Below the pieces are notes generated by a model. That model ran no database searches, was not told the DNA's origin, and saw nothing but the letters and a program-made list of their open reading frames with translations. From an uncultured Gammaproteobacteria bacterium (lineage in GTDB: Bacteria; Patescibacteriota; Microgenomatia; Levybacterales; GWA1-39-11), in the NCBI GenBank assembly GCA_964472415.1, contig CAYYLC010000001.1:239194-303193 (forward strand): DNA of 64,000 nt. Direction: 5' to 3'. A program made the translations under genes and the position numbers. How positions within the stretch are numbered: the first letter of the stretch is position 1; every line of letters begins with the position of its first letter. Below are positions 48,540 through 62,501 of the stretch, piece after piece.

Positions 48540-50894
48540 ATGTGGGTATTGCTAAGAAATATTCTTATTGTGGGTATCTTGGGAACATTTTTTTTGTCGG
48601 GTTTCCCATCGGATAAATTTGTGTATTATGCAACACAAGATATTTTTTATGGGAATCTTATCCAGAAGGATTTTGCTCAACTTTTCAAGCCGGAAGTGAA
48701 AAAAATACAGGCTGCAAATTTTTCTATGCAGACAGGATATTATATAGGATCTGGTTCGACGCTCTCTATTTCTGGCCTTGGATTCCAGCCGGATTTCATA
48801 TTGATCAAATCAGACACAAATGCTGGAGAGGCAGTGTTTAAAACGAGTGCGATGGCAAGCACAAATATGGCACTCATTGGTCCTGCTGCAGATAACACTA
48901 CTTCACAGATAACGATTGATTCAGATGGATTTACTGTAGGTAATATCGCCTACGTAAATAGAATTAATGATAGATATAATTGGGTGGCATTTGGAGGATC
49001 TGATTGTAGTTCAAGTGGAACATTTTGCGTAGGTCAGTATACGGGTAACGGATCATCTCCACGAAAAATTTCTACAGGATTCCAGCCAGATTTTGTACTA
49101 GCGAAGCATTCAACTGCAAATTTTTCAGCACATTTTCATACAGCTTCTCAGCCAGATAATGAAATTGGATATCTTACAAATTCTGTGCGAAATACGAGCG
49201 GGAACTATATTCGAGACTTCGTGTCAGATGGTTTTAATGTAGGACATTCCGGTTCATCAGGAAATAATGTAAATGGGCAGACATATAACTATATTGCTTT
49301 CAAGGCGACAAGCGGAATATTTTCAGAAGGAAGCTATACTGGCAATAACACGGATAATAGAAACATCACTGGAGTTGGGTTTAAGCCGGATTTTGTGCTG
49401 GTAAAAAGTATTAGTGCTTCTCCAGGAACGATAAATATTTCCGAAACTTATGGAGATTATGGAATACTGTTAACTGCTGTTGCAAGCAGTACTAATAATA
49501 TTCAAGAACTTCAGAGTGATGGGTTCCAAGTGGGGACTGCTACGACAGTAAATGCAAATGCTGATACATATTATTGGGTGGCATTTGGGGGCTCTGCCGA
49601 TTATACGTCTAGCGGAACCTTTCGTATGGATGTGGGATCGTATACTGGCACTGGGACCTCTCAATCTATCACAGGATTAGGATTCGCGCCAGATTTGGTT
49701 ATTATTAAAGCTCATAATGGAAACTACTCTGTTTTTAGAACCAGCATGATGAGAAATGATTTAACGAATTACCTTGCTGTGTCTGCGGGAGATTTTACGC
49801 AGGGAATAACGTCTCTTGATTCAGATGGATTTACTGTGGGATTGAGTTCTATTGTAAATACCAATGGCATTACCTATGAATGGCAGGCATTCGGGAATGC
49901 ATATAATCCATATACTAATACTGGGGCTTCTGATTTTGCGATAGGCGCATATATCGGAAACGGTGTGGATAATAGGAACATAGTCAAACTTCCCTGGCAG
50001 CCGGATTTTATCGCGACAAAAAGGAACACAACTTCACCATTGGTATGGAGATCATCTGTTATGGGGGGGGATGTTTCCAGCTCTTTGAATGCAACTGCTG
50101 ATAGTTCAAATAAGATACAAGCATTTAATAGTGATGGGTTTCAAGTGGGTTCTGATGATACTGCAAACTTCTCTGGGAGCTTATATCGGTGGTTTGCGTT
50201 TAAACAAGGGAGTAGTTTTGCAGTAGGAGGTTATACAGGGAATTCTACGGACAATCGTGATATTACTGATGTAGGGTTCCAGCCAGATTTGGTTTTTGTT
50301 AAAGGTACGGCAGGTGTGAATGGTGTGTTCCGATCGAGCTCTCTTACGGGAGATAGTTCTCAGTATTTCATAAATTTACCAAATACGAGTGACCGGATTC
50401 AGTCCCTTCTCTCGAATGGGTTTCAGTTGGGAGGAAATCAAACAGAAACAAATACAAATGCTAGTATTTATCGATATATCGCATGGAAAATCCCATCGAG
50501 CGCGCCTGAAGTTTCAGTTACGATAACAACTGATGGAACGATAAATTACGGAACGATAAATTCTGGTGAGACTATAAGTACTCTCAATCTTTCTGATACG
50601 CAAACTGTCCAGAATGACGGAGGAGTACCGATAGATATAAATATAAAAACAAGTACCCCAGAGGGATGGACATTGGGTTCAGTTTCTGGCACAGACACAT
50701 TTATTCATGAATTTTCTACAAATGCAGGATCTGATTGGATAGAATTTATTGCTGAAGATACGTATCAATCTTTTTGGAGTAATTTGGGAGTTGATGATAC
50801 GAAAAATTTTGATTTACGTTTTACTTCACCAAATCCTTCTACAGTTGCTACAGAGAAGATTATTTCCGTAACTATTCAAGCAGTCGAGCACTAG
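48540..50894 (+). CDS. Large secreted or anchored protein: N-terminal TM/signal anchor, six tandem repeats of about 100 aa, and a C-terminal beta-rich domain of about 130 aa containing a WTLG motif
   Basis: Repeats share Y(T/I)GNG...R.I.G(L/V)GF(Q/K)PD(F/L)V..K...(FR/FK)(T/S)S.M.......SDGF.VG......N.....Y.W(V/F)AFGGS, seen directly six times. The C-terminal domain is paralogous to ORF 50947-51477. Confidence 0.6.
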   Translation: MWVLLRNILIVGILGTFFLSGFPSDKFVYYATQDIFYGNLIQKDFAQLFKPEVKKIQAANFSMQTGYYIGSGSTLSISGLGFQPDFILIKSDTNAGEAVFKTSAMASTNMALIGPAADNTTSQITIDSDGFTVGNIAYVNRINDRYNWVAFGGSDCSSSGTFCVGQYTGNGSSPRKISTGFQPDFVLAKHSTANFSAHFHTASQPDNEIGYLTNSVRNTSGNYIRDFVSDGFNVGHSGSSGNNVNGQTYNYIAFKATSGIFSEGSYTGNNTDNRNITGVGFKPDFVLVKSISASPGTINISETYGDYGILLTAVASSTNNIQELQSDGFQVGTATTVNANADTYYWVAFGGSADYTSSGTFRMDVGSYTGTGTSQSITGLGFAPDLVIIKAHNGNYSVFRTSMMRNDLTNYLAVSAGDFTQGITSLDSDGFTVGLSSIVNTNGITYEWQAFGNAYNPYTNTGASDFAIGAYIGNGVDNRNIVKLPWQPDFIATKRNTTSPLVWRSSVMGGDVSSSLNATADSSNKIQAFNSDGFQVGSDDTANFSGSLYRWFAFKQGSSFAVGGYTGNSTDNRDITDVGFQPDLVFVKGTAGVNGVFRSSSLTGDSSQYFINLPNTSDRIQSLLSNGFQLGGNQTETNTNASIYRYIAWKIPSSAPEVSVTITTDGTINYGTINSGETISTLNLSDTQTVQNDGGVPIDINIKTSTPEGWTLGSVSGTDTFIHEFSTNAGSDWIEFIAEDTYQSFWSNLGVDDTKNFDLRFTSPNPSTVATEKIISVTIQAVEH
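50063..50070 (+). repeat. Homopolymeric G8 tract inside the coding sequence of the large repeat protein
   Basis: atgggggggga read directly. G runs of this length are rare in a 37 % GC genome and form a potential slipped-strand site. Confidence 0.7.
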
Positions 50895-50946: not shown

Positions 50947-51477
50947 ATGAAAGTGTCTATTCGTACTAAAAACATTACAAAAAGATCGATATTTTTTCAT
51001 TTATCGTTGATTATGTTCCTTTTTTCAATGGTTGTGCTGCCAGTGCGGGCAGCAAGTACAGATTCTGTTACCGCAACAGTTACTGTCCAGAACATATCAG
51101 TCTCAGTTTCAGATGGTGCTATTGCATACGGTACTTTGGCGCTAAATTCTTCCGCTGGTACGAATGGGATAGATACGCAAACTGCAGAAAACGATGGTAA
51201 TGTTACAGTAGACTTCAATATTCGTGGTCAAGACACCGCAAACTGGACACTGGGTGCTACAGCTGATTCTGATCTGTATGTTCATCGGTTTTGTACAGAA
51301 ACTTGCGATTCTGCACCTACAAACTATACTGCATTAACAACAAACTATCAGACACTTGCCGAGAGTAAGGCAGCAGAGGCAACGCAGACATTTGATCTTC
51401 ATATCTCTACTCCTACATCGACAGCTAACTATACAGAACAGTCAGCAGATGTTACCGTACAAGCAGCCCTTCCATAA
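50947..51477 (+). CDS. Secreted beta-rich protein (signal peptide plus one domain paralogous to the C-terminal domain of the upstream large protein; WxL-like motif NWTLG)
   Basis: Signal peptide then DGAIAYGT...QTAENDGNVTVDFNI...NWTLGATADSDLYVHRF...QTFDLHISTP...VTVQA, which aligns to the big protein C-terminus DGTINYGT...QTVQNDGGVPIDINI...GWTLGSVSGTDTFIHEF...KNFDLRFTSP...VTIQA. Confidence 0.6.
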   Translation: MKVSIRTKNITKRSIFFHLSLIMFLFSMVVLPVRAASTDSVTATVTVQNISVSVSDGAIAYGTLALNSSAGTNGIDTQTAENDGNVTVDFNIRGQDTANWTLGATADSDLYVHRFCTETCDSAPTNYTALTTNYQTLAESKAAEATQTFDLHISTPTSTANYTEQSADVTVQAALP

Positions 51478-51530: not shown

Positions 51531-52196
51531 ATGAGAAGGTTAATACTGTACATATTCTTAGGACTTATTTTCTTTACTATTCCCATTCAGTCGTTTGCAA
51601 AAATTGGCGTAGGAGTCGGGACGGGAAAAATTCAAGTTGACGATGATTTAAAGCCAGGAATTATCTATCAACTTCCCTCACTTACCGTATTTAATACCGG
51701 TGATGTGGATTCTGAATACACAGTGAATGTTGCATATCACGAGAAACAGCCAGAACTACGGCCTGAAAAATCGTGGTTACAGTTTTCTCCTGCTGAATTT
51801 GAGCTTAAACCAGGAGAGTCACAGGAAGTCCAGATAAAATTAAACCTTCCTGTGCGAACTGAGCCAGGAGACTACTTCGCGTATTTAGAAGGGAGCCCGA
51901 TTACCAAAAGTGCGAATGGGGCAACTACTGTAGGCATTGCTGCTGCTGCAAAATTATATTTCACGATAGTACCGGGAAATATTTTAGAGGGTATATATTT
52001 TAAATTGCTTTCTATGTGGGATATATACGCACCGTGGCCACAGGTAATTCTTGGAATTATCGTGGTGATGGGGATAATTCTTCTCGGCAAAAAATACCTC
52101 AATATTCAAATAAATGTAAAGGGGGACAAACGTAAATCTCCAAAGAAACTTGAAGCACAAGAAAAGCTAGCTAATGAGGAGATTGATAAAAAGTAA
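51531..52196 (+). CDS. Cell-surface protein with a signal peptide, a beta-rich ectodomain and a C-terminal TM anchor with a basic tail (architecture like DUF916/DUF3324 CscA-type proteins)
   Basis: Signal peptide, an ectodomain of about 150 aa, then ...LYFTIVPG plus a TM helix plus KKYLNIQINVKGDKRK. Confidence 0.5.
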   Translation: MRRLILYIFLGLIFFTIPIQSFAKIGVGVGTGKIQVDDDLKPGIIYQLPSLTVFNTGDVDSEYTVNVAYHEKQPELRPEKSWLQFSPAEFELKPGESQEVQIKLNLPVRTEPGDYFAYLEGSPITKSANGATTVGIAAAAKLYFTIVPGNILEGIYFKLLSMWDIYAPWPQVILGIIVVMGIILLGKKYLNIQINVKGDKRKSPKKLEAQEKLANEEIDKK

Positions 52197-52204
52197 TAGG
52201 ATGG

Positions 52205-52882
52205 ATGAACAGAGCAAATCAGATTGCAAGAATAATAACGTTCTTCGTTATATTCTTCCCCTTTGGATTATATGAGATTTATGCCCAGAGTAGCACTACA
52301 ATTATTGATGCAACGGTCAAGATCAGTATCTGTGGGAATGAAATAATTGAAGGAGGAGAGGACTGTGAAGGATCAAATCTCAATAATCAAACATGTCAGT
52401 CAGTAGGATATGGCCCAGGAAATCTTACGTGTGATATAGCCTGTACGTATGACGTAACCAATTGCTTAAGCCCTTCACCAACTCCTTCACCAATTCCTAC
52501 TATAATCCCTACACTTACTCCAACGGAAGGAGTAAGTCCGTCTCTTCCACAATTAGATAGTATTTCACCGTCGCCTTATTTGCTACAAAGTCCTATATTG
52601 CAGCCAAGTGTTTCTATATCGCCACGAATTACAGAATTAAGACCTCTCGGTACGGAGCTTCCAGAAAGCTTGCAGTATTTTGACTTTCGGGGTATCGGGA
52701 AAATCTTACTTTCAGATCTAACAGATGTTGTTGCCATTTGGGTAGATGGATGGAGAAATGTATTGCGTGAAGATGGGTCGAAAGGTGCGGTTTTACCAGA
52801 TCTGCAGAAATGTGATATGAATAATGATGGATTGTGTAATTTAACAGATTTTTCAATACTTATGTCATATATTGAATCGTAA
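52205..52882 (+). CDS. Secreted protein with an N-terminal Cys-rich repeat (CGNEIIEGGEDCEG type), a Pro/Ser/Thr linker and a C-terminal dockerin-like Ca-binding module
   Basis: The C-terminal CDMNNDGLCNLTDFSILMSYI fits the dockerin repeat consensus D-x-N-x-DG-x-(V/C)-N-x-x-D-x-x-x-L-x-x-Y position by position. The Cys-rich module resembles the Myxococcus-type cysteine-rich repeat. Confidence 0.6.
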   Translation: MNRANQIARIITFFVIFFPFGLYEIYAQSSTTIIDATVKISICGNEIIEGGEDCEGSNLNNQTCQSVGYGPGNLTCDIACTYDVTNCLSPSPTPSPIPTIIPTLTPTEGVSPSLPQLDSISPSPYLLQSPILQPSVSISPRITELRPLGTELPESLQYFDFRGIGKILLSDLTDVVAIWVDGWRNVLREDGSKGAVLPDLQKCDMNNDGLCNLTDFSILMSYIES

Positions 52883-52885
52883 ATT

Positions 52886-53899
52886 ATGAGTAGAAAATTG
52901 TGGGGCTTTAGTTTTATTTTTATTAGTATATTTTTAGCGCTTTTGCTTTGGATTTTGATTCATGTTCTTGCATTTTTTGGAGTATTTCTCGCTTTTGCGT
53001 ATCCTATTTGGTGGTTATTTTTTCCGCGACAAACAGTCTGTTTTTTCTGCAGGGTGCAGCGTGAAGGATCAAGTTGTCTGTTATGTAAACAGCGAATTAT
53101 TAAGCGTAATGGGGTCGTGCCGCAGACACTGCGTTCTGCTATTCTAAATGGTATTTTTTTGCTCCTTTTTTCACTTCTTTCTCTAGGAATTGTGTACGGG
53201 GAAAGTCAGATTTTATCTCTTTTTGGATTTCCGACAACTTCAAAAACTGCATCGTTTTCTACTCCCTCTCAAGGTCAATATAAAATACATGAAATATTTC
53301 CTATGGAAATAATCATAGAAAATATCGATAATCCTATTAATGCAATCCAGGCAGATATAGGATTTGATCCGGAAAAAGTTACAATTGTAGATATCACAAC
53401 TGATGAGTCATTTGCAAAAGTTTTTCTTCAGAAGGAAATCAATAATTCCGCCGGTTGGGCGCGACTCACTGGAGGACTTCCGAATCCAGGATGGAGCGGT
53501 GACAAAGGGATTTTTGGAGTCGTGTACTTTAGGGCAAAGAATGCAGGACTCGTGAGTATAGATTTTCTTTCTTCGTCAATGATACTTGCAAATGATAATC
53601 ATGGAACAGATGTCTTGAAGAGTTTACCGAGTGCAAATTATGTTATTCTTCCGGAAGAATTATCCCCAGATGAAATCCAGGAACAAATGAAATTCTTTGT
53701 TGATCAAGATACTTTCGGAATTAGTACAAGAGATGCACAGTTAAAATTTTATGAAGAGCAAGAAATGTTAGATCCGCAGGAATTTTCACGAGAAAAAAGT
53801 ACCAAAGATTCCATTTTCCCCCATTATCCTTTACAGGTTTTGGCAAAAGTTGATAATTTTATTATCGATTTTTGGAAGAATATTTTTAGAAATGGGTAG
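52886..53899 (+). CDS. Membrane protein with N-terminal TM helices, a Cys4 cluster (CFFC...CLLC) and an extracytoplasmic cohesin-like domain
   Basis: INAIQADIGFDPEKVTIVDIT...GDKGIFGVVYFRAKNAGLVSIDF parallels the cohesin core (I..(C/A)DF.(Y/F).YDP.VLE(I/V)..I...G..G.F..I.FK.K..G...I.F). Confidence 0.55.
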   Translation: MSRKLWGFSFIFISIFLALLLWILIHVLAFFGVFLAFAYPIWWLFFPRQTVCFFCRVQREGSSCLLCKQRIIKRNGVVPQTLRSAILNGIFLLLFSLLSLGIVYGESQILSLFGFPTTSKTASFSTPSQGQYKIHEIFPMEIIIENIDNPINAIQADIGFDPEKVTIVDITTDESFAKVFLQKEINNSAGWARLTGGLPNPGWSGDKGIFGVVYFRAKNAGLVSIDFLSSSMILANDNHGTDVLKSLPSANYVILPEELSPDEIQEQMKFFVDQDTFGISTRDAQLKFYEEQEMLDPQEFSREKSTKDSIFPHYPLQVLAKVDNFIIDFWKNIFRNG

Positions 53900-53903
53900 G
53901 TGT

Positions 53904-54968
53904 TTAAAGAGTTGCTTCTATTCCTCTAAATGAAATAGATGATTTTGATAAATGCCATGCTTCGTTTTTTCTTTTTCCGCTTGTATTTTTAAAGAATATA
54001 TTTTTCATTATTCTTTCTGCTGCGTAATTATCATGGGGGAATGTATCTCTATAGTGCACATCAGAATCCGGCGCACTATTTATCTCATTAATAGCGCTTC
54101 GGATGAGCGTGTGTGGTGTTGTAATATTCGGTGTTATGTAGTCTATTCCTGCGAATCTGAGGCTAAGTGTTTTTGCAGCATTGATAAATAATTCACGATT
54201 TTCTTGCGGAATATTTTCTTTATCTATTCTCACTCGCTCTCCCCCAATATCCAAGTCGCACCCGAGCTGGAGAAGGATATATGTTCCCTTTGGGTATATT
54301 TTCTGTAGGTCAATATTTTCCTCTTTTAGATAATGAAGATCTTTTTTTCTTAAAAAGATTGGGGGTAGTTGCATCTTTTCTCGTTGGGCATTTTTTTGTT
54401 GGATAAGCTCTGTTACGGTTTGTTTTCCATCTCCTGTAACGTTTGCTGCTATGCGTTGTGTAATAGCGATTATCTCATCATCGAGTATAGTTATTCTGAA
54501 ATGCTTTCCGGGTATATATTCTTCTATCATAATACTTGAATTTCCTTCGAATGCTTCTTTTACCGCATTTCTAATTTGGGCAGGAGTGGAGGGTTTCACT
54601 GTTATTCCGATAGAAAGTGAGCCGCTTATTGGTTTAACCACGAGTGCTTTTTTCTTTTTGAGTTGGTTTATGGCGTATGTATTTGCAGCTATTTCTTCAG
54701 TGAAAGTTTTAAATTTTGGGGTAGGAATATTTTGACTTTTTAAAAGTATTGAGGTTTTTACTTTATTTACTGAAAGATTTGAGCTAAGTTGTGAATTGAC
54801 CCCAAGTACATTCGAGCTTATATCGAGAACTGTTTTATCACTATAGATGCGAACTAAACCAATTTCTTCATTGAGAATTGAATATTCTAGGCCTAATTTT
54901 ATTGCAGCATTTAGGTATAGGTTTGCATATCTATTTTCTATTATTTTCTTCATATAGTTTTTTGGCAC
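53904..54968 (-). CDS. Stand-alone ATP-grasp enzyme (CphA N-terminal-like / RimK-like ligase)
   Basis: ANVTGDGKQTVTELIQQKN...LQLGCDLDIGGERVRIDKENI...LSLRFAGIDYI is the ATP-grasp C-terminal half, as in the cyanophycin-synthetase N-domain and D-Ala-D-Ala ligase-like enzymes. Confidence 0.55.
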   Translation of the reverse strand: MPKNYMKKIIENRYANLYLNAAIKLGLEYSILNEEIGLVRIYSDKTVLDISSNVLGVNSQLSSNLSVNKVKTSILLKSQNIPTPKFKTFTEEIAANTYAINQLKKKKALVVKPISGSLSIGITVKPSTPAQIRNAVKEAFEGNSSIMIEEYIPGKHFRITILDDEIIAITQRIAANVTGDGKQTVTELIQQKNAQREKMQLPPIFLRKKDLHYLKEENIDLQKIYPKGTYILLQLGCDLDIGGERVRIDKENIPQENRELFINAAKTLSLRFAGIDYITPNITTPHTLIRSAINEINSAPDSDVHYRDTFPHDNYAAERIMKNIFFKNTSGKRKNEAWHLSKSSISFRGIEATL

Positions 54969-55924: not shown

Positions 55925-56004
55925 AAGTGGATTATATCATGGAGAGGATGTAGTGAGAGAAATAGCGCTAGGGGTTAAGTAGTTAAATCTTAATTAATCG
56001 AGTG

Positions 56005-56077
56005 TGAGCCGACTGGGACTCGAACCCAGAACCAAAAGCTTAAAAGGCTTTTGCTCTGCCAATTGAGCTATCGGCCC
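56005..56077 (-). tRNA. tRNA-Lys (anticodon UUU)
   Basis: Reverse complement GGGCCGATAGCTCAATTGGCAGAGCAAAAGCCTTTTAAGCTTTTGGTTCTGGGTTCGAGTCCCAGTCGGCTCA folds into a cloverleaf with anticodon loop CTTTTAA. CCA is not encoded. Confidence 0.85.
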
Positions 56078-56283
56078 GATATCGAATCAGAGATATTTCC
56101 TTTGCAAGAAGTTTGATCTATTCTGATTCTCTTTATTTTATCCTATAAGTAGAATGAAAATAAAGCACTGGACTGTAATTTTATCAAAGTTGGGCGTGTT
56201 ACGCAATGAATGTATTTGACAAAGCACAAATATTTTTTAATACTGATAGAAGTGAAACAGAAGAGAGGGGGTGATAAATACAC

Positions 56284-56943
56284 ATGGAAGAAATCAGTAA
56301 TACGCTTGTCAGTACGATAAACAGCAGTATGGAGGGTGTTATTGCATATGCGCCGCGATTTATTCTTGGTTTAATTTTTCTTATAATTGGGATAATCGTT
56401 GCTGCATTTGTACGGCAAGTTCTCAAAGAACTATTTCGGTTTTTCAAACTTGATGCGTATTTGACAAAATACGGAGTTCCAGAATCAAAAGATGGTTCGA
56501 AGTGGAGTGCAATTGTTGCAGAAATCGCACGTTGGTTTGTAATTATTGCGTTTCTTGTTCCGACAGCAGATTTGTGGGGATTGGAGCGGTTCGCATCGCT
56601 TCTGAACAATCTCTTGACTTATCTCCCAAACGTGTTTATTGCAGTATTGTTGCTTCTTGTAGGATTTGTGGTGGCACGATTGGTGTACGACTTAGTCCTT
56701 GCATCAGTTCGAGGAGTTTCTAAAGATTCTGCAAAAACTGTTGCGCTCGTTGCACGCTATGCAGTTCTCGTATTTGTGGCACTTGTTGTGCTTAATCAAC
56801 TCGGAATAGCGAGTGACTTAATACGCATATTGTTTGCAGGAATTGTTGCGATGCTTGCTATCGCTGGGGGCCTTGCATTTGGACTTGGTGGAAAAGACGC
56901 GGCACGAGATACGATAGAGCGACTCAGACGAAAAATGAAATAA
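56284..56943 (+). CDS. Small membrane protein of the conserved-TM-helix / MscS-related family
   Basis: Four hydrophobic helices with repeated ...(R/K)..........G.. helix motifs. Preceded by TTGACA-17-TAATAC and a GGGGGTGA Shine-Dalgarno sequence. Confidence 0.45.
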   Translation: MEEISNTLVSTINSSMEGVIAYAPRFILGLIFLIIGIIVAAFVRQVLKELFRFFKLDAYLTKYGVPESKDGSKWSAIVAEIARWFVIIAFLVPTADLWGLERFASLLNNLLTYLPNVFIAVLLLLVGFVVARLVYDLVLASVRGVSKDSAKTVALVARYAVLVFVALVVLNQLGIASDLIRILFAGIVAMLAIAGGLAFGLGGKDAARDTIERLRRKMK

Positions 56944-56950
56944 TTTTTCC

Positions 56951-56994
56951 AAGGAACACACTGAAGTCGTTTTTCGGTGTGTTTCCTTGTTTGT
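56951..56994 (+). terminator. Rho-independent terminator candidate after the 56284-56943 gene
   Basis: AAGGAACACAC ... GTGTGTTTCCTT stem (one bulge) followed by GTTTGT. Confidence 0.45.
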
Positions 56995-57034
56995 AAGTCA
57001 AAGTTTTTATATAATTGGCAATGTGTCACTGTAC

Positions 57035-57107
57035 GGCCCCATCGTCTAGTGGCCTAGGACACCGGGCTTTCATCCCGGCAACACGGGTTCGACTCCCGTT
57101 GGGGTCA
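57035..57107 (+). tRNA. tRNA-Glu (anticodon UUC)
   Basis: Acceptor GGCCCCA/TGGGGTC, anticodon stem CCGGG/CCCGG with loop CTTTCAT, T arm ACGGG-TTCGACT-CCCGT, discriminator A. Confidence 0.85.
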
Positions 57108-58587
57108 CATTTCGAGATAAGGAATCTTCAAACTCCCTGTTTAGCTTGAATGGAAGGGCTAAGTCGTGGTTCGAAACCTTCTCAAATTGATACTTTACCC
57201 CTCTAGGAAAAATCATTGTTTGTAATTTGATTTTGAAGAGAGGTGGAGCGTCAAACCATATCAAATTAACGGTTTGAATGAAGTTCTGAGCATATGCAAG
57301 ACAAACTTTAATTTCACCCTCATCAGTCTTTGTCTCATGTAAGCCTAACTCTGCAATAGCAATCTGATCTCTTATTTGAGAAAGCTCTTCATTTGATTCT
57401 TCGTCTGTTAAGATCTGTTTCTTGCTCATTTGTATTATTCGAGCCTTTTCAGCTTGTAATCTCTGTATTTCACTCTTGAGTCTAATAGTATCTCCTTCCA
57501 ACTCCTGAATTCTGTTACGATACACTCGAATAAACATTTCCTTAAATAATTCTATCGTGTCTTCGTTTGGCTTTACATGCCCAAGCAGGTTATAAAAATC
57601 CTCGTGTAAATCATTTCGCTTATATGTTTTACCTCTTAACTCGCATCCTTTTCTAACACAGTAATACTTTGGATATTTTTTAGTTCTCCCTTTACACCAT
57701 GCAGCAGTCATAGGTACCCCACATTCTTTGCATTGGATAAATCTTCTCATTGGAAAATCTTCATTTTCTGTATTTCTTTTCATTTTACCTATATTTGATT
57801 TTCGAAGTATGACTTCATGACACTTATAGAATGTGTGTTCATCAGTGAGAGGCGTGTGTATTCCTTTTGTCTCAACTCCGTACTTACTAATTACTCCCAT
57901 ATAAAACTTATCACGGAGTATTTTGTGGATTAGCTGAGGATGAATTTTCATTCCTTTCTTACTCTTAATTCCTCTTCTATTAAGTTCATCTGCTAAATTC
58001 TTATAAGTATAATGTCCAGTAGAGAACTTCTTAAACAACTCGGTTACTATTGGTCCTTTAATAGGATCTAGAGCCATGATTGCATGATCTGTTTCATCTT
58101 TTTTATTGATGTACCCGAACTTAGCTCCCCAAACCCATCTTCCTTTAAGTACCCATCCTTGCATAGCTTCTGTAACACGTGTAGATTTAATATCATTATC
58201 TAACTGTGCTACAGCTGCAAATAGTCCTTCTATTACTTTCCCCATACCAGTGTCGTCAATTGGTTCGGTAGCAGACCTAAGACTAATGTCATATTCAAGT
58301 AGTCTTGCTTTAATTGCGAAGTGATCCATTTGGTTCCTAGCTAATCGGTCAATTTTATAAACTAAACACACATTCACTTTGCCTTTATTGATTCGACAGT
58401 ACTCAATAAGTTCTTTTAGTTGAGTTCTTTTTGTGGTTTTGGCGGATTCACCTTCTTCTTTGAAGATCTTTACGATTTTCCACCCATTCTCTTGAGCATA
58501 TTTTTTACATGAGGCAATTTGTGCATCAAAGCTGATATTGCCTATCTGACTAGGATCTGATACTCGGATATAAAGAATAACATTCAT
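57070..58587 (-). CDS. Large serine recombinase (integrase): resolvase catalytic domain, recombinase domain and zinc ribbon
   Basis: YIRVSDPSQ (catalytic Ser), KIDRLARN, recombinase domain and C4 ribbon CKECG...YYCVRKGC. The last 12 codons are encoded by the complement of the tRNA-Glu 3' half (38-nt overlap). Confidence 0.85.
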   Translation of the reverse strand: MNVILYIRVSDPSQIGNISFDAQIASCKKYAQENGWKIVKIFKEEGESAKTTKRTQLKELIEYCRINKGKVNVCLVYKIDRLARNQMDHFAIKARLLEYDISLRSATEPIDDTGMGKVIEGLFAAVAQLDNDIKSTRVTEAMQGWVLKGRWVWGAKFGYINKKDETDHAIMALDPIKGPIVTELFKKFSTGHYTYKNLADELNRRGIKSKKGMKIHPQLIHKILRDKFYMGVISKYGVETKGIHTPLTDEHTFYKCHEVILRKSNIGKMKRNTENEDFPMRRFIQCKECGVPMTAAWCKGRTKKYPKYYCVRKGCELRGKTYKRNDLHEDFYNLLGHVKPNEDTIELFKEMFIRVYRNRIQELEGDTIRLKSEIQRLQAEKARIIQMSKKQILTDEESNEELSQIRDQIAIAELGLHETKTDEGEIKVCLAYAQNFIQTVNLIWFDAPPLFKIKLQTMIFPRGVKYQFEKVSNHDLALPFKLNREFEDSLSRNVTPTGVEPVLPG

Positions 58588-58633
58588 ATTATTTCAATTT
58601 TATTAATCTATATTTAGTATAGCTTTTTTGAGC

Positions 58634-59353
58634 CTATTTTTGTGAATTTTTCTTTAAGAAATCAATGATTTTTGTATTAAAAATTGCTCCTGGAACTCTC
58701 ACTGTCTTATCTTGTTCTATCTCACTGGCAAATTGAAATAATATGTGAGCTGGAACACCTTTTTTAATTGCTGCTAAGTATGTTGTCTGAAGTGATTTAT
58801 GATTATTAGGTTCTAGTCTTTTGAATACCTCAAAGGCTGCAAATGTATCATTATCTGTTGGTTCAAAAGTATTAGGATCTAGTTCTTTATGCTCTTTTTT
58901 GCGAGATGATATTTCTAGTTCGCTTTCATTATTCTGTATTTTATTTGATTTAATTAAATTAGATTGGGGTGACCACTGGTTGTCTTTTGGCGGTACATTG
59001 GCTGTACTTTGTCTGTCCTCGTATGCTGGAATTTGTGATTTGCGAAATCTATTCTTTCTAATTTGCTGATGATCAAGCCATGAAGGAAACTCTATATACC
59101 ATTCACCATTTCTTTCCCATCTAATTATCAGTTTTTGAGTTGTTATTTCATCAAGGAACTTTTCAATATCAGAGTGTTTATATTCAGTCATGGGAAAAAC
59201 TTTCCCTTTTATATAATCAAATTCTCCTCTAATCCTTCCTTCATCATCCGCATGTGCAATCATCCAAGTGAATAAAAGTCTAGCTTCAAGTGATAGTCGA
59301 TTTACCTGAAGTGAGGTTGATATTTTCCAATGCAACATTCTTGCTTTTGCCAT
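58634..59353 (-). CDS. Putative replication-initiation / replisome-organizer-like protein (phage/plasmid type)
   Basis: N-terminal RLSLEARLLFTWMIAHADDEGRIRG...LIIRWERNGEWYIEFPSWLDHQ resembles the winged-helix N-domain of phage replisome organizers / DnaD-like initiators. This is a weak, by-eye call. Confidence 0.3.
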   Translation of the reverse strand: MAKARMLHWKISTSLQVNRLSLEARLLFTWMIAHADDEGRIRGEFDYIKGKVFPMTEYKHSDIEKFLDEITTQKLIIRWERNGEWYIEFPSWLDHQQIRKNRFRKSQIPAYEDRQSTANVPPKDNQWSPQSNLIKSNKIQNNESELEISSRKKEHKELDPNTFEPTDNDTFAAFEVFKRLEPNNHKSLQTTYLAAIKKGVPAHILFQFASEIEQDKTVRVPGAIFNTKIIDFLKKNSQK

Positions 59354-59504
59354 TTCTATTTATTTTTAATTTCTATATATCTATCAATAATTAAGTTAGA
59401 CAATACATATAAGTGATCTATAATCTCCTGAATTTGTTTATCTGTATATTTGAGATTACTGTCTCCTATTATTTTTCGTGCTTCTTTAATTGTTATTAAC
59501 ATAG

Positions 59505-59747
59505 TTAGCTAAAAATCAAATCCTTTAATTCTGATAACTTTGTGTTAAGCTCTTTGGGATTTACTACTGCACGATCTAGCCAGTATTCATTAACTAGAGA
59601 TTCACATAATTTTGAATCTTCAAATAGAAAGATTGCTTCTTTGGGGTTAGTTTTATTGATTCCAGCAAACTGAACCTTCCTAGTAGTTTGTAGATATGCT
59701 GCGAGGATTAGGGATTTAGTTTTGTAATATCTATCTGCTGTATTCAT
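59505..59747 (-). CDS. Hypothetical small protein (80 aa) of the mobile element
   Basis: ORF only; compact spacing within the element operon. Confidence 0.3.
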   Translation of the reverse strand: MNTADRYYKTKSLILAAYLQTTRKVQFAGINKTNPKEAIFLFEDSKLCESLVNEYWLDRAVVNPKELNTKLSELKDLIFS

Positions 59748-59821
59748 ATTCTGTGCTCAATTTGATATGAGTACAGTTTATTTGAAGTAGATAATTATTA
59801 GTATGGTGGTTTATGTTGCTA

Positions 59822-60700
59822 TTAAACCTCAGGTGAAAAACGTTTTAGTAGCTTTTTATATTCTGACACTGCGTGATAGATGTAATTATCATCATCTATA
59901 TAGCAGTTATCGCATCTTTGAGTTCCATTGTGGTGAGTCAAGTATTCATGTAAATCTGGACGTTCATTCCATTTTTTTATAATTTTTTTATAGTTACCTT
60001 TTGTCTGTACACTCCAATACCACTCTCTGTCACGCTTAATGTTTCTGTGAGTATCTTTCTTTAGCTTGCTATAAATAGAAAGTTCACCTAAATGATTTTC
60101 ATTTTGCATGTTTAGCAAATCACTTACTGCTGCATAAATATCTTTTTTAGTAGTAAATGGCATAACTTCAATTCCAGTAATAACTTCTCGCTCTGTCAAG
60201 ATATCAGTAGGCTGAGAGGGTAGATATGGTATCTCTTCTGAAAATGCTCTTGCGGTTTTAAGCGATGATACTTTGTGTTCTAAGATCACGTTTAGAATTA
60301 CATATTCAAAAATTCTAGGATAGTGAAATTTCAACCTAAGTATTCTTAATTCCTCAAAAAAATTTTTCTCTATTTCATCTACTTTTGACTGAATTTTTTC
60401 AAACACTTCATATTCAGTGTTACTTTTTCTATTGCGAATGAAAGTGTTTGGATCAACCCCATTTAATGGATCGGACTCATCTTCAAGTCTGTAATACTCT
60501 TTCGGATTGTAACCCGCAAGTTTTATGAAATGATCAAATAAACTATCACGTACTCCTTCTACTTTTAATTCAAGAGGAGGAATTATTTTGTACTTATCTC
60601 TTATTCGTTTAACTGACTCTAGAAATAGTGGTTGATCTACCAAAAAAGCAACAAGAGCATAATTACGGCTATTCTCAATATCTATCTGGACTTGTTTCAT
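59822..60700 (-). CDS. Hypothetical protein (292 aa) of the mobile element
   Basis: ORF only; no motif recognised. Confidence 0.35.
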   Translation of the reverse strand: MKQVQIDIENSRNYALVAFLVDQPLFLESVKRIRDKYKIIPPLELKVEGVRDSLFDHFIKLAGYNPKEYYRLEDESDPLNGVDPNTFIRNRKSNTEYEVFEKIQSKVDEIEKNFFEELRILRLKFHYPRIFEYVILNVILEHKVSSLKTARAFSEEIPYLPSQPTDILTEREVITGIEVMPFTTKKDIYAAVSDLLNMQNENHLGELSIYSKLKKDTHRNIKRDREWYWSVQTKGNYKKIIKKWNERPDLHEYLTHHNGTQRCDNCYIDDDNYIYHAVSEYKKLLKRFSPEV

Positions 60701-60724
60701 GACTATATCAATATCTAGCTTGAA

Positions 60725-61090
60725 TTATATAAAATTCTTTACTGGAACAGATATTTTTGCGAATCTTCGTTGTGTTATTCCTGTTTCTCCTGACCTGATT
60801 CTTTGATTGACTTTCCTTCGTAGTTCTCTATATGTATCTTCATTGGCTGCTTGAATTGTGCTTTTATGCTTCTGTAGTGCAGTATGTAATCTTTTTGCAT
60901 CTGCCTTTGAGAGATATCTTTTCTTTTGAATCCATGCTCTGTGTGAGAGTTTCCAGTATCGATAGTAAAAGTAGGGACCGTGCAGGTCACCTTTCAGACA
61001 CTTACAGCCTCTCTTACCACATTTGACCATTTGTGAATGGATATTGCCAGGTGTCTTGATCACTGAATCAAGTATTTTTATGTCCTTCAT
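60725..61090 (-). CDS. Small basic Zn-ribbon protein (CGKRGCKC...HGPY); candidate DNA-binding / recombination-directionality-type factor
   Basis: C-x4-C-x-C followed by HGPYFYY and a Lys/Arg-rich C-terminal half; first gene of the element operon. Confidence 0.35.
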   Translation of the reverse strand: MKDIKILDSVIKTPGNIHSQMVKCGKRGCKCLKGDLHGPYFYYRYWKLSHRAWIQKKRYLSKADAKRLHTALQKHKSTIQAANEDTYRELRRKVNQRIRSGETGITQRRFAKISVPVKNFI

Positions 61091-61174
61091 ACTATGATTC
61101 TATCAAATCTTAGGACACAAAAAAGGCATTTTAGGGCTCTCCATGCAAGGTCAAATTAAATGGTCAAAGTATAG

Positions 61175-62501
61175 CTTCAAAAACTGAAATGTACTAAAAC
61201 TTTGGTCCTTGTAATACCAATACACCAACACAAAATAACAGGAAATACATGGGTTAATATGCAAGATTTTGTAATTTACCTTGTAATTAGCAAGGGTAAT
61301 CAATACATGAATCAAGATTATATGGATTACATCTCTTCAATCGATTTACAGTCTTTACTTAAAAGTACTTTGTGATGAGATATTCGGTAGGCATAATTTT
61401 GTAACTAGTGTTATATGGCAAAAAATTCATAGTACTAAGAACGATGCAAAATATCTTTCTGTTAATCATGATTACATACTTATTTATGCAAAGAATATAG
61501 ACAAAATCAAAATTCCATTGCTTCCTAGAACAGAAAAAATGAATGCAAGATACAAAAATCCAGATAACGATCCACGTGGACCTTGGCAATCTGGGGATCT
61601 TGTAGCTAATGAAGAAAGAACAAATGGAAGATTTGAAATTATTGGTCCAACAGGAAAATCATTTAATGTACCAGCTGGTAAACATTGGGTATATACAAAA
61701 TCTAAATTACAAGAAATGATCAATGATGACAGAATATGGTTCGGTAAAAATGGTGATTCTTTTCCAAGAAAAAAGAGGTTCTTAACAGAAGTTCAACAGG
61801 GAAAAAAAGCAGATACATGGTGGATCAGCGAAGAAGTAGGACATAATCAAGAAGGTAAAAGAGAAGTATTGAAATTTAATCCTGATGATGTATTTGCTAC
61901 TCCAAAACCTGAGAGATTACTACATCGAATTATAACTTTAGCTACAAATGAAGGAGATATAGTATTAGACAGCTTTGCAGGCTCTGGTACAACTGGAGCT
62001 GTTGCACATAAGATGAATAGAAAATGGATAATGGTAGAACTTGGTAATCATGCAGAAACACACATTATCCCACGTATGAAAAAAGTTGTTGAAGGCAAAG
62101 ATGGTGGTGGAATTTCTAAACTTGTGGACTGGCAAGGTGGCGGTGGATTCAAGTATTTTGAATTAGGTGAAAGCCTCTTTGTCAAAGATGGTGATCTCAG
62201 ACTTACTGTTATCAATCCCAAAATGTATAACGGTGCTCTCATCAGAGCTATATTGAAATTAGAAGGCTTCAAAGTTGTAAACCCTGATAATGGTTTGCAT
62301 GGTAAGTCTGGAACAACTGTAGCTCATGTCACAGAGCAGTATGTAAGCCAAGAATATATTGATACCCTACTCAATGAGATAGGAGATCAGGCAAAGTTTG
62401 TTGTTATATATGCAAAAACTATCTCAAGTAATGTAAAATTGCCTGATAATGTAGAGATAAAGAGAATACCAGATATTCTCCTAAAGAAATTTACCGTATG
62501 A
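61175..62501 (+). pseudogene. Type III restriction-modification Mod (N6-adenine methyltransferase, beta class): the N-terminal region is degenerate and frameshifted, only the C-terminal about 330 aa remain as an intact ORF
   Basis: Intact part: FATPKPERLLHRII...DSFAGSGTTGAVAH (motif I FxGxG) from a TTG-start ORF at 61518-62501. Upstream, frame 0 reads LCDEIFGRHNFVTSVIWQK...HDYILIYAK, which is Mod-like but is preceded by a stop at 61308. A different frame reads ...NTGN..DFVIY..YISSID ending in a stop at 61373. The expected DPPY is degenerated to PIHQ, and no start codon is found. Confidence 0.55.

Follow-up and report, generated by a model that had tools for sequence, protein, structure and literature searches.

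A membrane-anchored cohesin protein and a secreted protein with a dockerin-like EF-hand pair are encoded by conserved neighbouring genes in Patescibacteria

Patescibacteria, the bacteria of the candidate phyla radiation (CPR), are ultra-small and are thought to live largely attached to other cells, and their surface proteins are little known. We analysed a 64,000-nucleotide stretch (the window) of contig CAYYLC010000001.1 (GenBank assembly GCA_964472415.1, positions 239,194 to 303,193 of the forward strand), deposited as an uncultured Gammaproteobacteria bacterium and assigned by GTDB to the Levybacterales within the Microgenomatia. Two adjacent genes of the window, here called A and B, had been read in an initial annotation, made from the letters alone, as a secreted dockerin-bearing protein followed by a membrane-anchored cohesin-like protein, and both open reading frames (ORFs) are present where that annotation had placed them. 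We consider it probable that this Microgenomates-group member of the Patescibacteria uses A and B as a dedicated non-cellulosomal dockerin-like/cohesin pair, in which A would dock on B at the cell surface.

52205-52882, plus strand: A, 225 residues, a predicted secreted protein with a dockerin-like C-terminus; AGGA lies 8 nt 5' of the ATG
52886-53899, plus strand: B, 337 residues, a membrane-anchored cohesin protein; its ATG lies 3 nt past the stop codon of A

B is a genuine cohesin protein. The Pfam Cohesin model (PF00963) matches residues 136-237 with 26.3 bits, above its gathering score of 24.1, many B orthologues carry a precomputed match to the same model, and some of the more than 200 database homologues are labelled 'cohesin domain-containing protein' by NCBI, NCBIfam having no model for either A or B. 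An AlphaFold2 (AF2) model built from 46 orthologues (mean predicted local distance difference test score, pLDDT, of 83.9; mostly 84-96 in the cohesin domain) consists of a helix at residues 4-45, a small Cys4 knuckle, a second helix at residues 82-112, a beta-sandwich at residues 122-258 and a poorly ordered tail. When this model was compared with the Protein Data Bank (PDB) by Foldseek, the top 35 matches were all cohesins, with E-values down to 1.2e-10 and target TM-scores of 0.71-0.81 for the best of them (0.75-0.81 for 6kgc_A, 2vo8, 4uyq_A and 2xdh). Both cellulosomal (6kgc_A, 4uyq_A, 1g1k_A) and non-cellulosomal cohesins (2vo8, 2jh2_A, 2xdh) were among the matches, and the nine-stranded flattened beta-sandwich (jelly-roll) that defines a cohesin is found in B by AF2 and Foldseek together. 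A sequence search of PDB chains with B gave no match. Conservation on the predicted strands was highest on beta5, beta6 and beta3, a pattern that is not discriminating since the whole domain is conserved.

52895-53020, plus strand: N-terminal hydrophobic helix or hairpin of B (residues 4-45), with conserved S21, W22, H26, G32, Y39, P40, W42 and W43
53039-53086, plus strand: Cys4 cluster of B, C52-x2-C55...C64-x2-C67 in a basic loop
53129-53221, plus strand: third transmembrane helix of B (model helix 82-112, transmembrane part ~84-105)
53249-53659, plus strand: cohesin beta-sandwich of B (residues 122-258; Pfam, AF2, Foldseek)
53660-53896, plus strand: C-terminal tail of B, with an acidic helix, a disordered stretch and a terminal amphipathic helix that contains the near-invariant W330

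The N-terminal transmembrane segments that had been described as flanking a CxxC...CxxC cluster were recovered as a 40-residue hydrophobic stretch (residues 7-46) on one side of the four cysteines and the third transmembrane helix on the other. C55 is invariant in the B family, and C52, C64 and C67 are kept in at least 90% of its members. Because the loop that holds them (residues 46-83) is strongly basic, with 8 Lys/Arg to 1 Asp/Glu in the window copy and, averaged over the family, a net charge of +4.3, the positive-inside rule predicts it to be cytoplasmic and the cohesin domain to lie outside the cell, in agreement with the membrane anchoring and orientation first proposed for B. The Cys4 cluster may be a cytoplasmic zinc ribbon with putative zinc binding. 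Searched against 1.84 billion representative proteins, the anchor (the first 115 residues of B) found only 77 clusters. Almost all are proteins of ~320-370 residues, or fragments, that were matched at the N-terminus; the transmembrane hairpin-Cys4-transmembrane anchor therefore belongs to the B cohesin family alone.

The 101 database homologues of A all come from Patescibacteria metagenomes.

52205-52285, plus strand: predicted signal peptide of A (residues 1-27, ending in ...EIYA before QS), with a basic n-region, a hydrophobic core and an A-x-A-like end
52331-52465, plus strand: 6-Cys module of A (residues 43-87), weakly DUF4215-like
52466-52654, plus strand: Pro/Ser/Thr-rich linker of A (residues 88-150), predicted disordered
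52658-52879, plus strand: C-terminal module of A (residues 152-225), a dockerin-like EF-hand pair in the order helix, loop 1, helix, linker, loop 2, helix
52682-52717, plus strand: loop 1 of the module, D160-D171 (DFRGIGKILLSD), an EF-hand loop, degenerate in the window copy
52811-52849, plus strand: loop 2 and its flanking cysteines, C203-D215 (CDMNNDGLCNLTD), a dockerin-type calcium loop with invariant Cys at positions 0 and 8

Residues 1-27 are a likely signal peptide, within which the AF2 model of A places a helix (H3-21). The Cys-rich N-terminal module (CGNEIIEGGEDCEG, residues 43-56, and what follows) and the Pro/Ser/Thr linker (~88-150) described at the outset are both there. All six cysteines of the module (C43, C54, C64, C76, C80, C87) are invariant columns in an alignment of 42 relatives, the module is modelled with a pLDDT of ~87-94, and sub-threshold matches to DUF4215 occur in 10 of the 42 (best E 0.004). 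The linker has a pLDDT of 46-64 and differs in length and sequence across the family.

The C-terminal letters of A (...QKCDMNNDGLCNLTDFSILMSYIES; in a longer stretch, CDMNNDGLCNLTDFSILMSYIES) had been recognized by their fit to the dockerin consensus. Written as a regular expression, this consensus matched once among the ORFs of the window, in A, and not at all in 200 shuffles of the ORF residues, so that the motif is not a product of chance. The module layout, read from the alignment of 42 relatives and from C-terminal modules cut from 98 relatives, is constant: LPxxLxxF, loop 1, a helix VKxWVxEW[RK], a linker of variable length, loop 2 and a helix FSILLYYV. Where the initial annotation had counted a single repeat, 98/98 relatives have two loop-helix repeats, the one that had been missed lying upstream, at D160-D171. 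Loop 1 follows the family pattern D-x-[DN]-G-[DS]-G-[KR]-I-x-x-x-E and loop 2 the pattern C-D-x-N-x-D-x-x-C-[DN]-L-x-D. The calcium ligands of loop 2 are canonical in all 98 modules (D1 100%, N3 95%, D5 96%, C8 100%, D/N9 89%, D12 100%), and the conserved loop with its cysteine pair is kept in 98 of 101 full-length family members; those of loop 1 are canonical in 63 of 98, with Glu at position 12 in 66. In the AF2 model the module is a helix, a loop, a long helix, a linker, a short helix, a loop and a helix, with a pLDDT of 86-96 except in the inter-repeat linker. By sequence, repeat 1 looks EF-hand-like (E at position 12, a helix before the loop) and repeat 2 dockerin-like (N/D9, D12). The invariant cysteines at loop-2 positions 0 and 8 suggest a disulfide staple, which C203 and C211 probably form across the loop. 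The same loop, C-D-x-N-x-D-x-x-C, recurs in more distant metagenomic lineages (L114:769-1257, L141:2-313, L098:537-923, L150:5029-7146), where it forms repeat 1 of tandem dockerins that are otherwise classical, so the cysteine staple would be wider than the A family.

The evidence that ties the two proteins together is genomic. The B family was used to collect 80 loci of species-representative genomes (Beckwith-, Ames-, Levy-, Woese-, Roizman-, Shapiro-, Collier-, Davies- and Pacebacteria, WWE3 and WS6/Dojkabacteria), which were analysed with local hidden Markov models (HMMs). An A-type gene lies directly upstream of the B orthologue, on the same strand, in 60 of 68 species-level loci (four of the other eight have no upstream sequence), and in 60/60 the module ends 0-6 residues from the C-terminus of the upstream protein. 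Gaps between the two genes of -4 nt (13 loci), -1 nt (8 loci) and -14 nt (5 loci) are typical of translational coupling. In a reciprocal test, metagenome contigs were scanned with a degenerate DNA pattern for loop 2 alone: the motif fell inside an ORF matching the module HMM in 78 of the 80 returned loci, and, where 300 nt or more of sequence was available on the downstream side (69 loci), a gene matching the cohesin HMM came directly after in 63. Thirteen of these 63 pairs lack the gene that precedes A in the window (g3, below) despite at least 1.5 kb of upstream sequence, which argues that the A-B pair is the conserved core. Among the six exceptions, some have classical tandem dockerins (Dockerin_1 24.8-27.4 bits; L097, L098, L150) that precede transmembrane-anchored cohesin-like ORFs, and the downstream ORFs of two of the six have sub-threshold Pfam Cohesin matches. 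The cargo of A varies while the module is fixed: the 6-Cys module is present in 45 of 60 loci, and a second cassette type has Ig-like Big_6/Big_13 domains in its place, in keeping with a docking tag on interchangeable passengers. In both search directions, then, A and B genes are a nearly obligate and often overlapping pair.

Two loci show B-type proteins in other settings. L013:4603-6225 (plus strand) encodes a 540-residue ORF made of a B-type protein without its last helix, a long Pro/Thr linker and a dockerin-like module, with no g2, g3 or A gene upstream; the cohesin and dockerin parts may be truly fused or may have been joined by misassembly. We count it as no more than weak Rosetta-stone evidence: it is a singleton, its nearest relative (77% identity) is unfused, the rest of the cassette is missing, and it may have been misassembled through the DNA of the Pro/Thr linker. 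At L037:7014-8372 (plus strand), upstream of B, the place of the dockerin-bearing protein is taken by a 452-residue protein that is Ig-like in its N-terminal part and continues with a Pro/Thr linker, a transmembrane segment and a weak cohesin-like domain, such that two cohesin proteins stand in tandem.

How far the module of A may be called a dockerin had to be weighed, since sequence alone cannot separate a dockerin from a generic EF-hand pair here. Pfam Dockerin_1 matches 44 of 49 modules (E up to 0.1) and EF-hand_1 matches 41 of 49. Over both repeats the Dockerin_1 cut-off is passed by relatives in L078 (35.9 bits), L010 (28.0), L068 (25.3) and L017 (23.9), and the EF-hand_1 cut-off is exceeded in L017 (27.4 versus 25.4). 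An hhalign comparison put the module in register with both repeats of the CelS dockerin (93.4% probability, E 2.5e-7, 35% identity); loop 1 of most relatives fits the EF-hand pattern D-x-[DNS]-x-[DNS]-G-x-I-x-x-x-E; and a sequence search of PDB chains with A returned marginal dockerin matches only. Several observations weigh against a docking function. (i) Of the two Pfam matches that the initial annotation had led one to expect, that of Cohesin to B holds and that of Dockerin_1 (PF00404) to the window copy of A falls short of the cut-off of 22.9 (18.3 bits for the whole protein, 21.0 for the isolated module), with the second repeat alone aligned. (ii) Loop 1 of the window copy has Arg at position 3 and Ile at position 5 and has thereby lost two calcium ligands. 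(iii) A PDB search with the family profile gave EF-hand proteins as top matches (calmodulin, calcineurin B and calbindin, E 1e-11 to 1e-7), and hhalign aligned both repeats with the calmodulin C-lobe as well as or better than with the dockerin (95.4%, E 1.8e-8, 25% identity). (iv) Gene adjacency is a sign of co-function, not of direct contact, and the cohesin of B could instead bind other products of its cassette (g1 or g2) or a host ligand.

Some of these observations can be accommodated if the module is a plain extracellular calcium-binding EF-hand pair, structural or calcium-sensing, that makes no contact with B, the latter binding g1, g2 or a ligand on the host surface; A and B would then be neighbours merely through their work in one operon. 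The profile and hhalign matches, the frequency of EF-hand_1 hits, the Glu at position 12 of loop 1, as in classical EF-hands, and a weak structural match of the module to dockerins all speak for such a module. Yet it leaves aside that a cohesin gene follows in 63 of 69 loci chosen without reference to cohesin, including the 13 without g3 and very divergent cohesins, that the module is always C-terminal, behind a linker and on interchangeable cargo, as dockerins are, and that loop 2 has the dockerin pattern (N/D9, D12). We regard this account as rather unlikely. The 'dockerin' label thus rests on genomic context, because the module is as near to calmodulin-type EF-hand pairs as to dockerins, and the name we use for it is dockerin-like EF-hand pair.

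The pair stands at the end of a cassette of five genes whose order across species is g1, g2, g3, A, B.

48540-50894, plus strand: g1, 784 residues, predicted secreted, with ~6 tandem DUF7483 units of ~100 residues and a C-terminal domain (~640-784) homologous to g2
50947-51477, plus strand: g2, 176 residues, a predicted secreted beta protein rich in Thr and Val, in which the W of 'WTL' is invariant
51531-52196, plus strand: g3, 221 residues, with a signal peptide, an Ig-like beta domain, a C-terminal transmembrane segment and a basic tail

Among 42 large loci, B was found in 42, g3 in 41 and g2 in 32, and no other gene family occurs in more than 8, the flanking genes differing between species; the cassette is conserved across the Microgenomates lineages, WWE3 and Dojkabacteria, in dozens of species. 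The first gene is the variable 'head' position. In the window it matches Pfam DUF7483 with 171.8 bits (with weaker DUF7361 matches) and is recovered by the iterative g2 profile at 1e-44; its equivalents in other species span 286-1495 residues and carry DUF7483, BNR-like or Gly_rich_2 domains or no known domain, DUF7483-type repeats being seen at this position also in L009 and L055 and not in most other species. The g2 proteins are ~170 residues long across species, and neither a Pfam family nor a PDB relative was found for the 39 aligned orthologues, their PDB profile search being empty. The g3 proteins measure ~205-230 residues and have Ig-like matches that are all sub-threshold (fn3_5 in 20, NEW3 in 19 and PapD_N in 8 of 40 members), with an equally empty PDB profile search. 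A terminator scan found none on the plus strand within the cassette, and a promoter scan was uninformative (34 promoter-like sites against 24.5 +/- 4.9 expected). DsbA and VKOR genes lie near the cassette only in L002 and L004 (2 of 41 large loci), which we dismiss as a coincidence.

In the second cassette type (L012, L017, L028, L034, L043, L054, L066, L068), which was seen ~4 kb upstream of B in each of these loci, two g3-like genes of ~310 residues, usually with another gene between them, are followed by an A gene with Big_6/Big_13 in place of the 6-Cys module and then by B. The intervening gene belongs to a ~356-residue family (for example L066:5024-6094) present in 8 of 42 large loci.

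No glycoside hydrolase or other enzyme domain was found in A, g1, g2 or g3, in the window or in the related loci examined, so that the cassette is enzyme-free; it is predicted to be located entirely in the envelope. This content bears on whether the pair might be a minimal cellulosome, in which a scaffoldin-like cohesin would recruit a dockerin-bearing enzyme that degrades polysaccharides. Cohesins and dockerins are families best known from cellulosomes, and the best structural matches of B are cellulosomal. The domain content contradicts the idea all the same: the cohesin is single, there is no carbohydrate-binding module (CBM), and A carries a 45-residue Cys-rich module or Ig-like domains where an enzyme would stand. 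A passage of PMC13487519 defines a cellulosome by a scaffoldin with at least two cohesins together with dockerin-fused glycoside hydrolases; the cassette has one cohesin and no CAZyme domains. We therefore hold a cellulosome to be most improbable.

The genes upstream of the pair had been described in the initial annotation as a 'WxL-like island'. They do belong to one conserved cassette with A and B; homology to WxL or WxL-interacting (WxLIP) proteins was not found, and the term is at most an architectural analogy. Were g1 and g2 WxL-type proteins and g3 a WxL-interacting protein (DUF916/DUF3324), with A and B as accessory anchors, the cassette would be the CPR counterpart of a Firmicutes complex. 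The gene order is suggestive, in that the C-terminal domain with the invariant 'WTL' is common to one large and one small secreted protein, which precede an Ig-like protein with a C-terminal transmembrane segment. The WxL model, however, is matched by 0 of 39 g2 members, WxLIP_PGBD is touched by 1 of 39 g2 and 1 of 40 g3 members at E ~0.09, and no LPXTG partner was seen. A homologous WxL/Csc system is, in our judgement, improbable.

In light of these comparisons we return to the docking of A on B. B would sit in the cytoplasmic membrane, with its hydrophobic hairpin and Cys4 loop facing the cytoplasm and its third transmembrane helix placing the single cohesin outside. A, once secreted, would dock with its C-terminal module on this cohesin, and its Pro/Thr stalk and small 6-Cys head would thereby stay attached to the cell surface, where other lineages would display Big_6/Big_13 Ig-like domains instead. 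A and B would be co-translated, in the same operon as the head-variable g1, the small g2, a paralogue of g1, and the Ig-like g3 with its membrane anchor, and the five products may form an enzyme-free surface structure with a hypervariable component, the most likely role of which we infer to be adhesion or surface architecture. Such a structure would suit bacteria that adhere to hosts and live on them. A bolder reading, to which we give only a small chance, takes all parts together as a previously undescribed CPR-specific surface apparatus with the cohesin of B as its base socket. The disulfide-stapled EF-hand/dockerin hybrid of A would plug into this socket in a calcium- and redox-dependent manner, whether the socket is occupied could be signalled to the cell interior by the cytoplasmic Cys4 zinc ribbon, and g1 and g2 (through their shared domain) and g3 would form a fibre or patch whose hypervariable g1 heads would attach episymbiotic cells to their hosts.

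In the literature searched, no description of the A-B pair or of the cassette in CPR bacteria was found. What is new is the family-specific transmembrane-Cys4-transmembrane anchor, the cysteine-stapled EF-hand/dockerin hybrid, the one-to-one coupled pair and the conserved five-gene cassette. In one metagenome survey cohesin and dockerin genes served as markers of polysaccharide degradation, and the survey separately predicted an association of some CPR taxa, for example Dojkabacteria, with carbohydrate degradation; our analysis argues against taking cohesin and dockerin matches in CPR genomes as a sign of cellulolysis. Because the cassette is enzyme-free, predicted to be all-envelope, hypervariable in its first gene and conserved across lineages, it is a concrete and testable candidate for a CPR surface-display or attachment system. 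It would also extend cohesin-dockerin biology to a one-to-one coupled pair, a new membrane anchor and a module midway between EF-hand and dockerin with a conserved cysteine staple; such an intermediate bears on the origin of dockerins from EF-hands, and the A and B modules could yield a small affinity pair switchable by redox state and calcium.

Next to the cassette in the window, an ATP-grasp ligase gene (53904-54968, minus strand) converges on B with 4 nt between the stop codons; its best partial matches, far below the cut-offs, are to cyanophycin synthetase and to bifunctional GshA/GshB, in both cases to the ligase portion, and it is not kept beside the cassette in other species. Further on (window 56004-62501 and further), a tRNA-Glu gene (57035-57108) is abutted, with a slight overlap, by a serine recombinase gene (57070-58587, minus strand; Resolvase and Recombinase domains). 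The recombinase gene is followed by small genes of no known function (DUF5659, DUF6788), an N6_N4 methyltransferase gene (61518-62501) and a ResIII/restriction endonuclease gene, and the GC content at 58-62 kb is 0.32-0.33 against ~0.38 elsewhere. The region looks like a mobile element with a restriction-modification system that has integrated at a tRNA gene. As to the collected loci, many TPA_asm records (L006, L010, L013, L017, L021 and others) are titled 'uncultured Gammaproteobacteria', 'Pseudomonadales' or 'Saccharibacteria' and yet hold a Microgenomates-type cassette with 40-50% identity to named Microgenomates genomes, so these organism titles look unreliable.

Of the known systems that come closest, the WxL/Csc loci of Firmicutes have an analogous operon logic: large and small secreted proteins with a shared C-terminal domain, then a membrane-anchored Ig-like protein. 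They differ in that g2 and g3 have no detectable sequence homology to them and in that WxL loci are not known to carry a cohesin or dockerin. With calmodulin-type EF-hand pairs the module of A aligns over both loops, and loop 1 is a textbook EF-hand in most relatives; unlike calmodulin, the module is predicted to be extracytoplasmic, stands at the C-terminus of a secreted protein, has D12, N/D9 and the cysteine pair in loop 2, and has a near-obligate cohesin neighbour.

The clostridial type I cohesin-dockerin pairs are another close system. B has the same cohesin sandwich as the Clostridium acetobutylicum CaCohA2-CaDoc0917 complex (6KGC; Foldseek E 1e-10, target TM-score 0.78), and the module of A, like the C. 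thermocellum CelS dockerin (1DAQ), has two calcium-loop-plus-helix repeats, in register, and, like clostridial dockerins, is C-terminal after a Pro/Thr linker. In contrast to clostridial dockerins, its first repeat is of EF-hand type (E at position 12, a helix before it), its second loop is bracketed by two invariant cysteines and usually lacks Gly at position 6, and the inter-repeat linker varies widely in length across the family. The architecture differs as well: the one cohesin of B is carried by a polytopic membrane anchor that includes a Cys4 loop, where clostridial cellulosomes have a scaffoldin bearing SLH, sortase or CBM elements; the cargo of A is non-catalytic; and A and B are one-to-one and translationally coupled, whereas one scaffoldin serves many dockerins.

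Non-cellulosomal cohesins and dockerins on mostly non-catalytic proteins are already known, as a passage of PMC13487519 states (citing Peer et al. 2009). Cohesins of this kind, from Archaeoglobus fulgidus (2XDH) and from the cohesin-like GH84/GH33 modules of Clostridium perfringens (2VO8, 2JH2, 2W1N), are among the significant fold matches of B, and their parent proteins, akin to A and B, are non-catalytic or non-cellulolytic and carry one or few modules. Compared with these, the A-B family is restricted to Patescibacteria, has an anchor module of its own and lies inside a conserved five-gene cassette.

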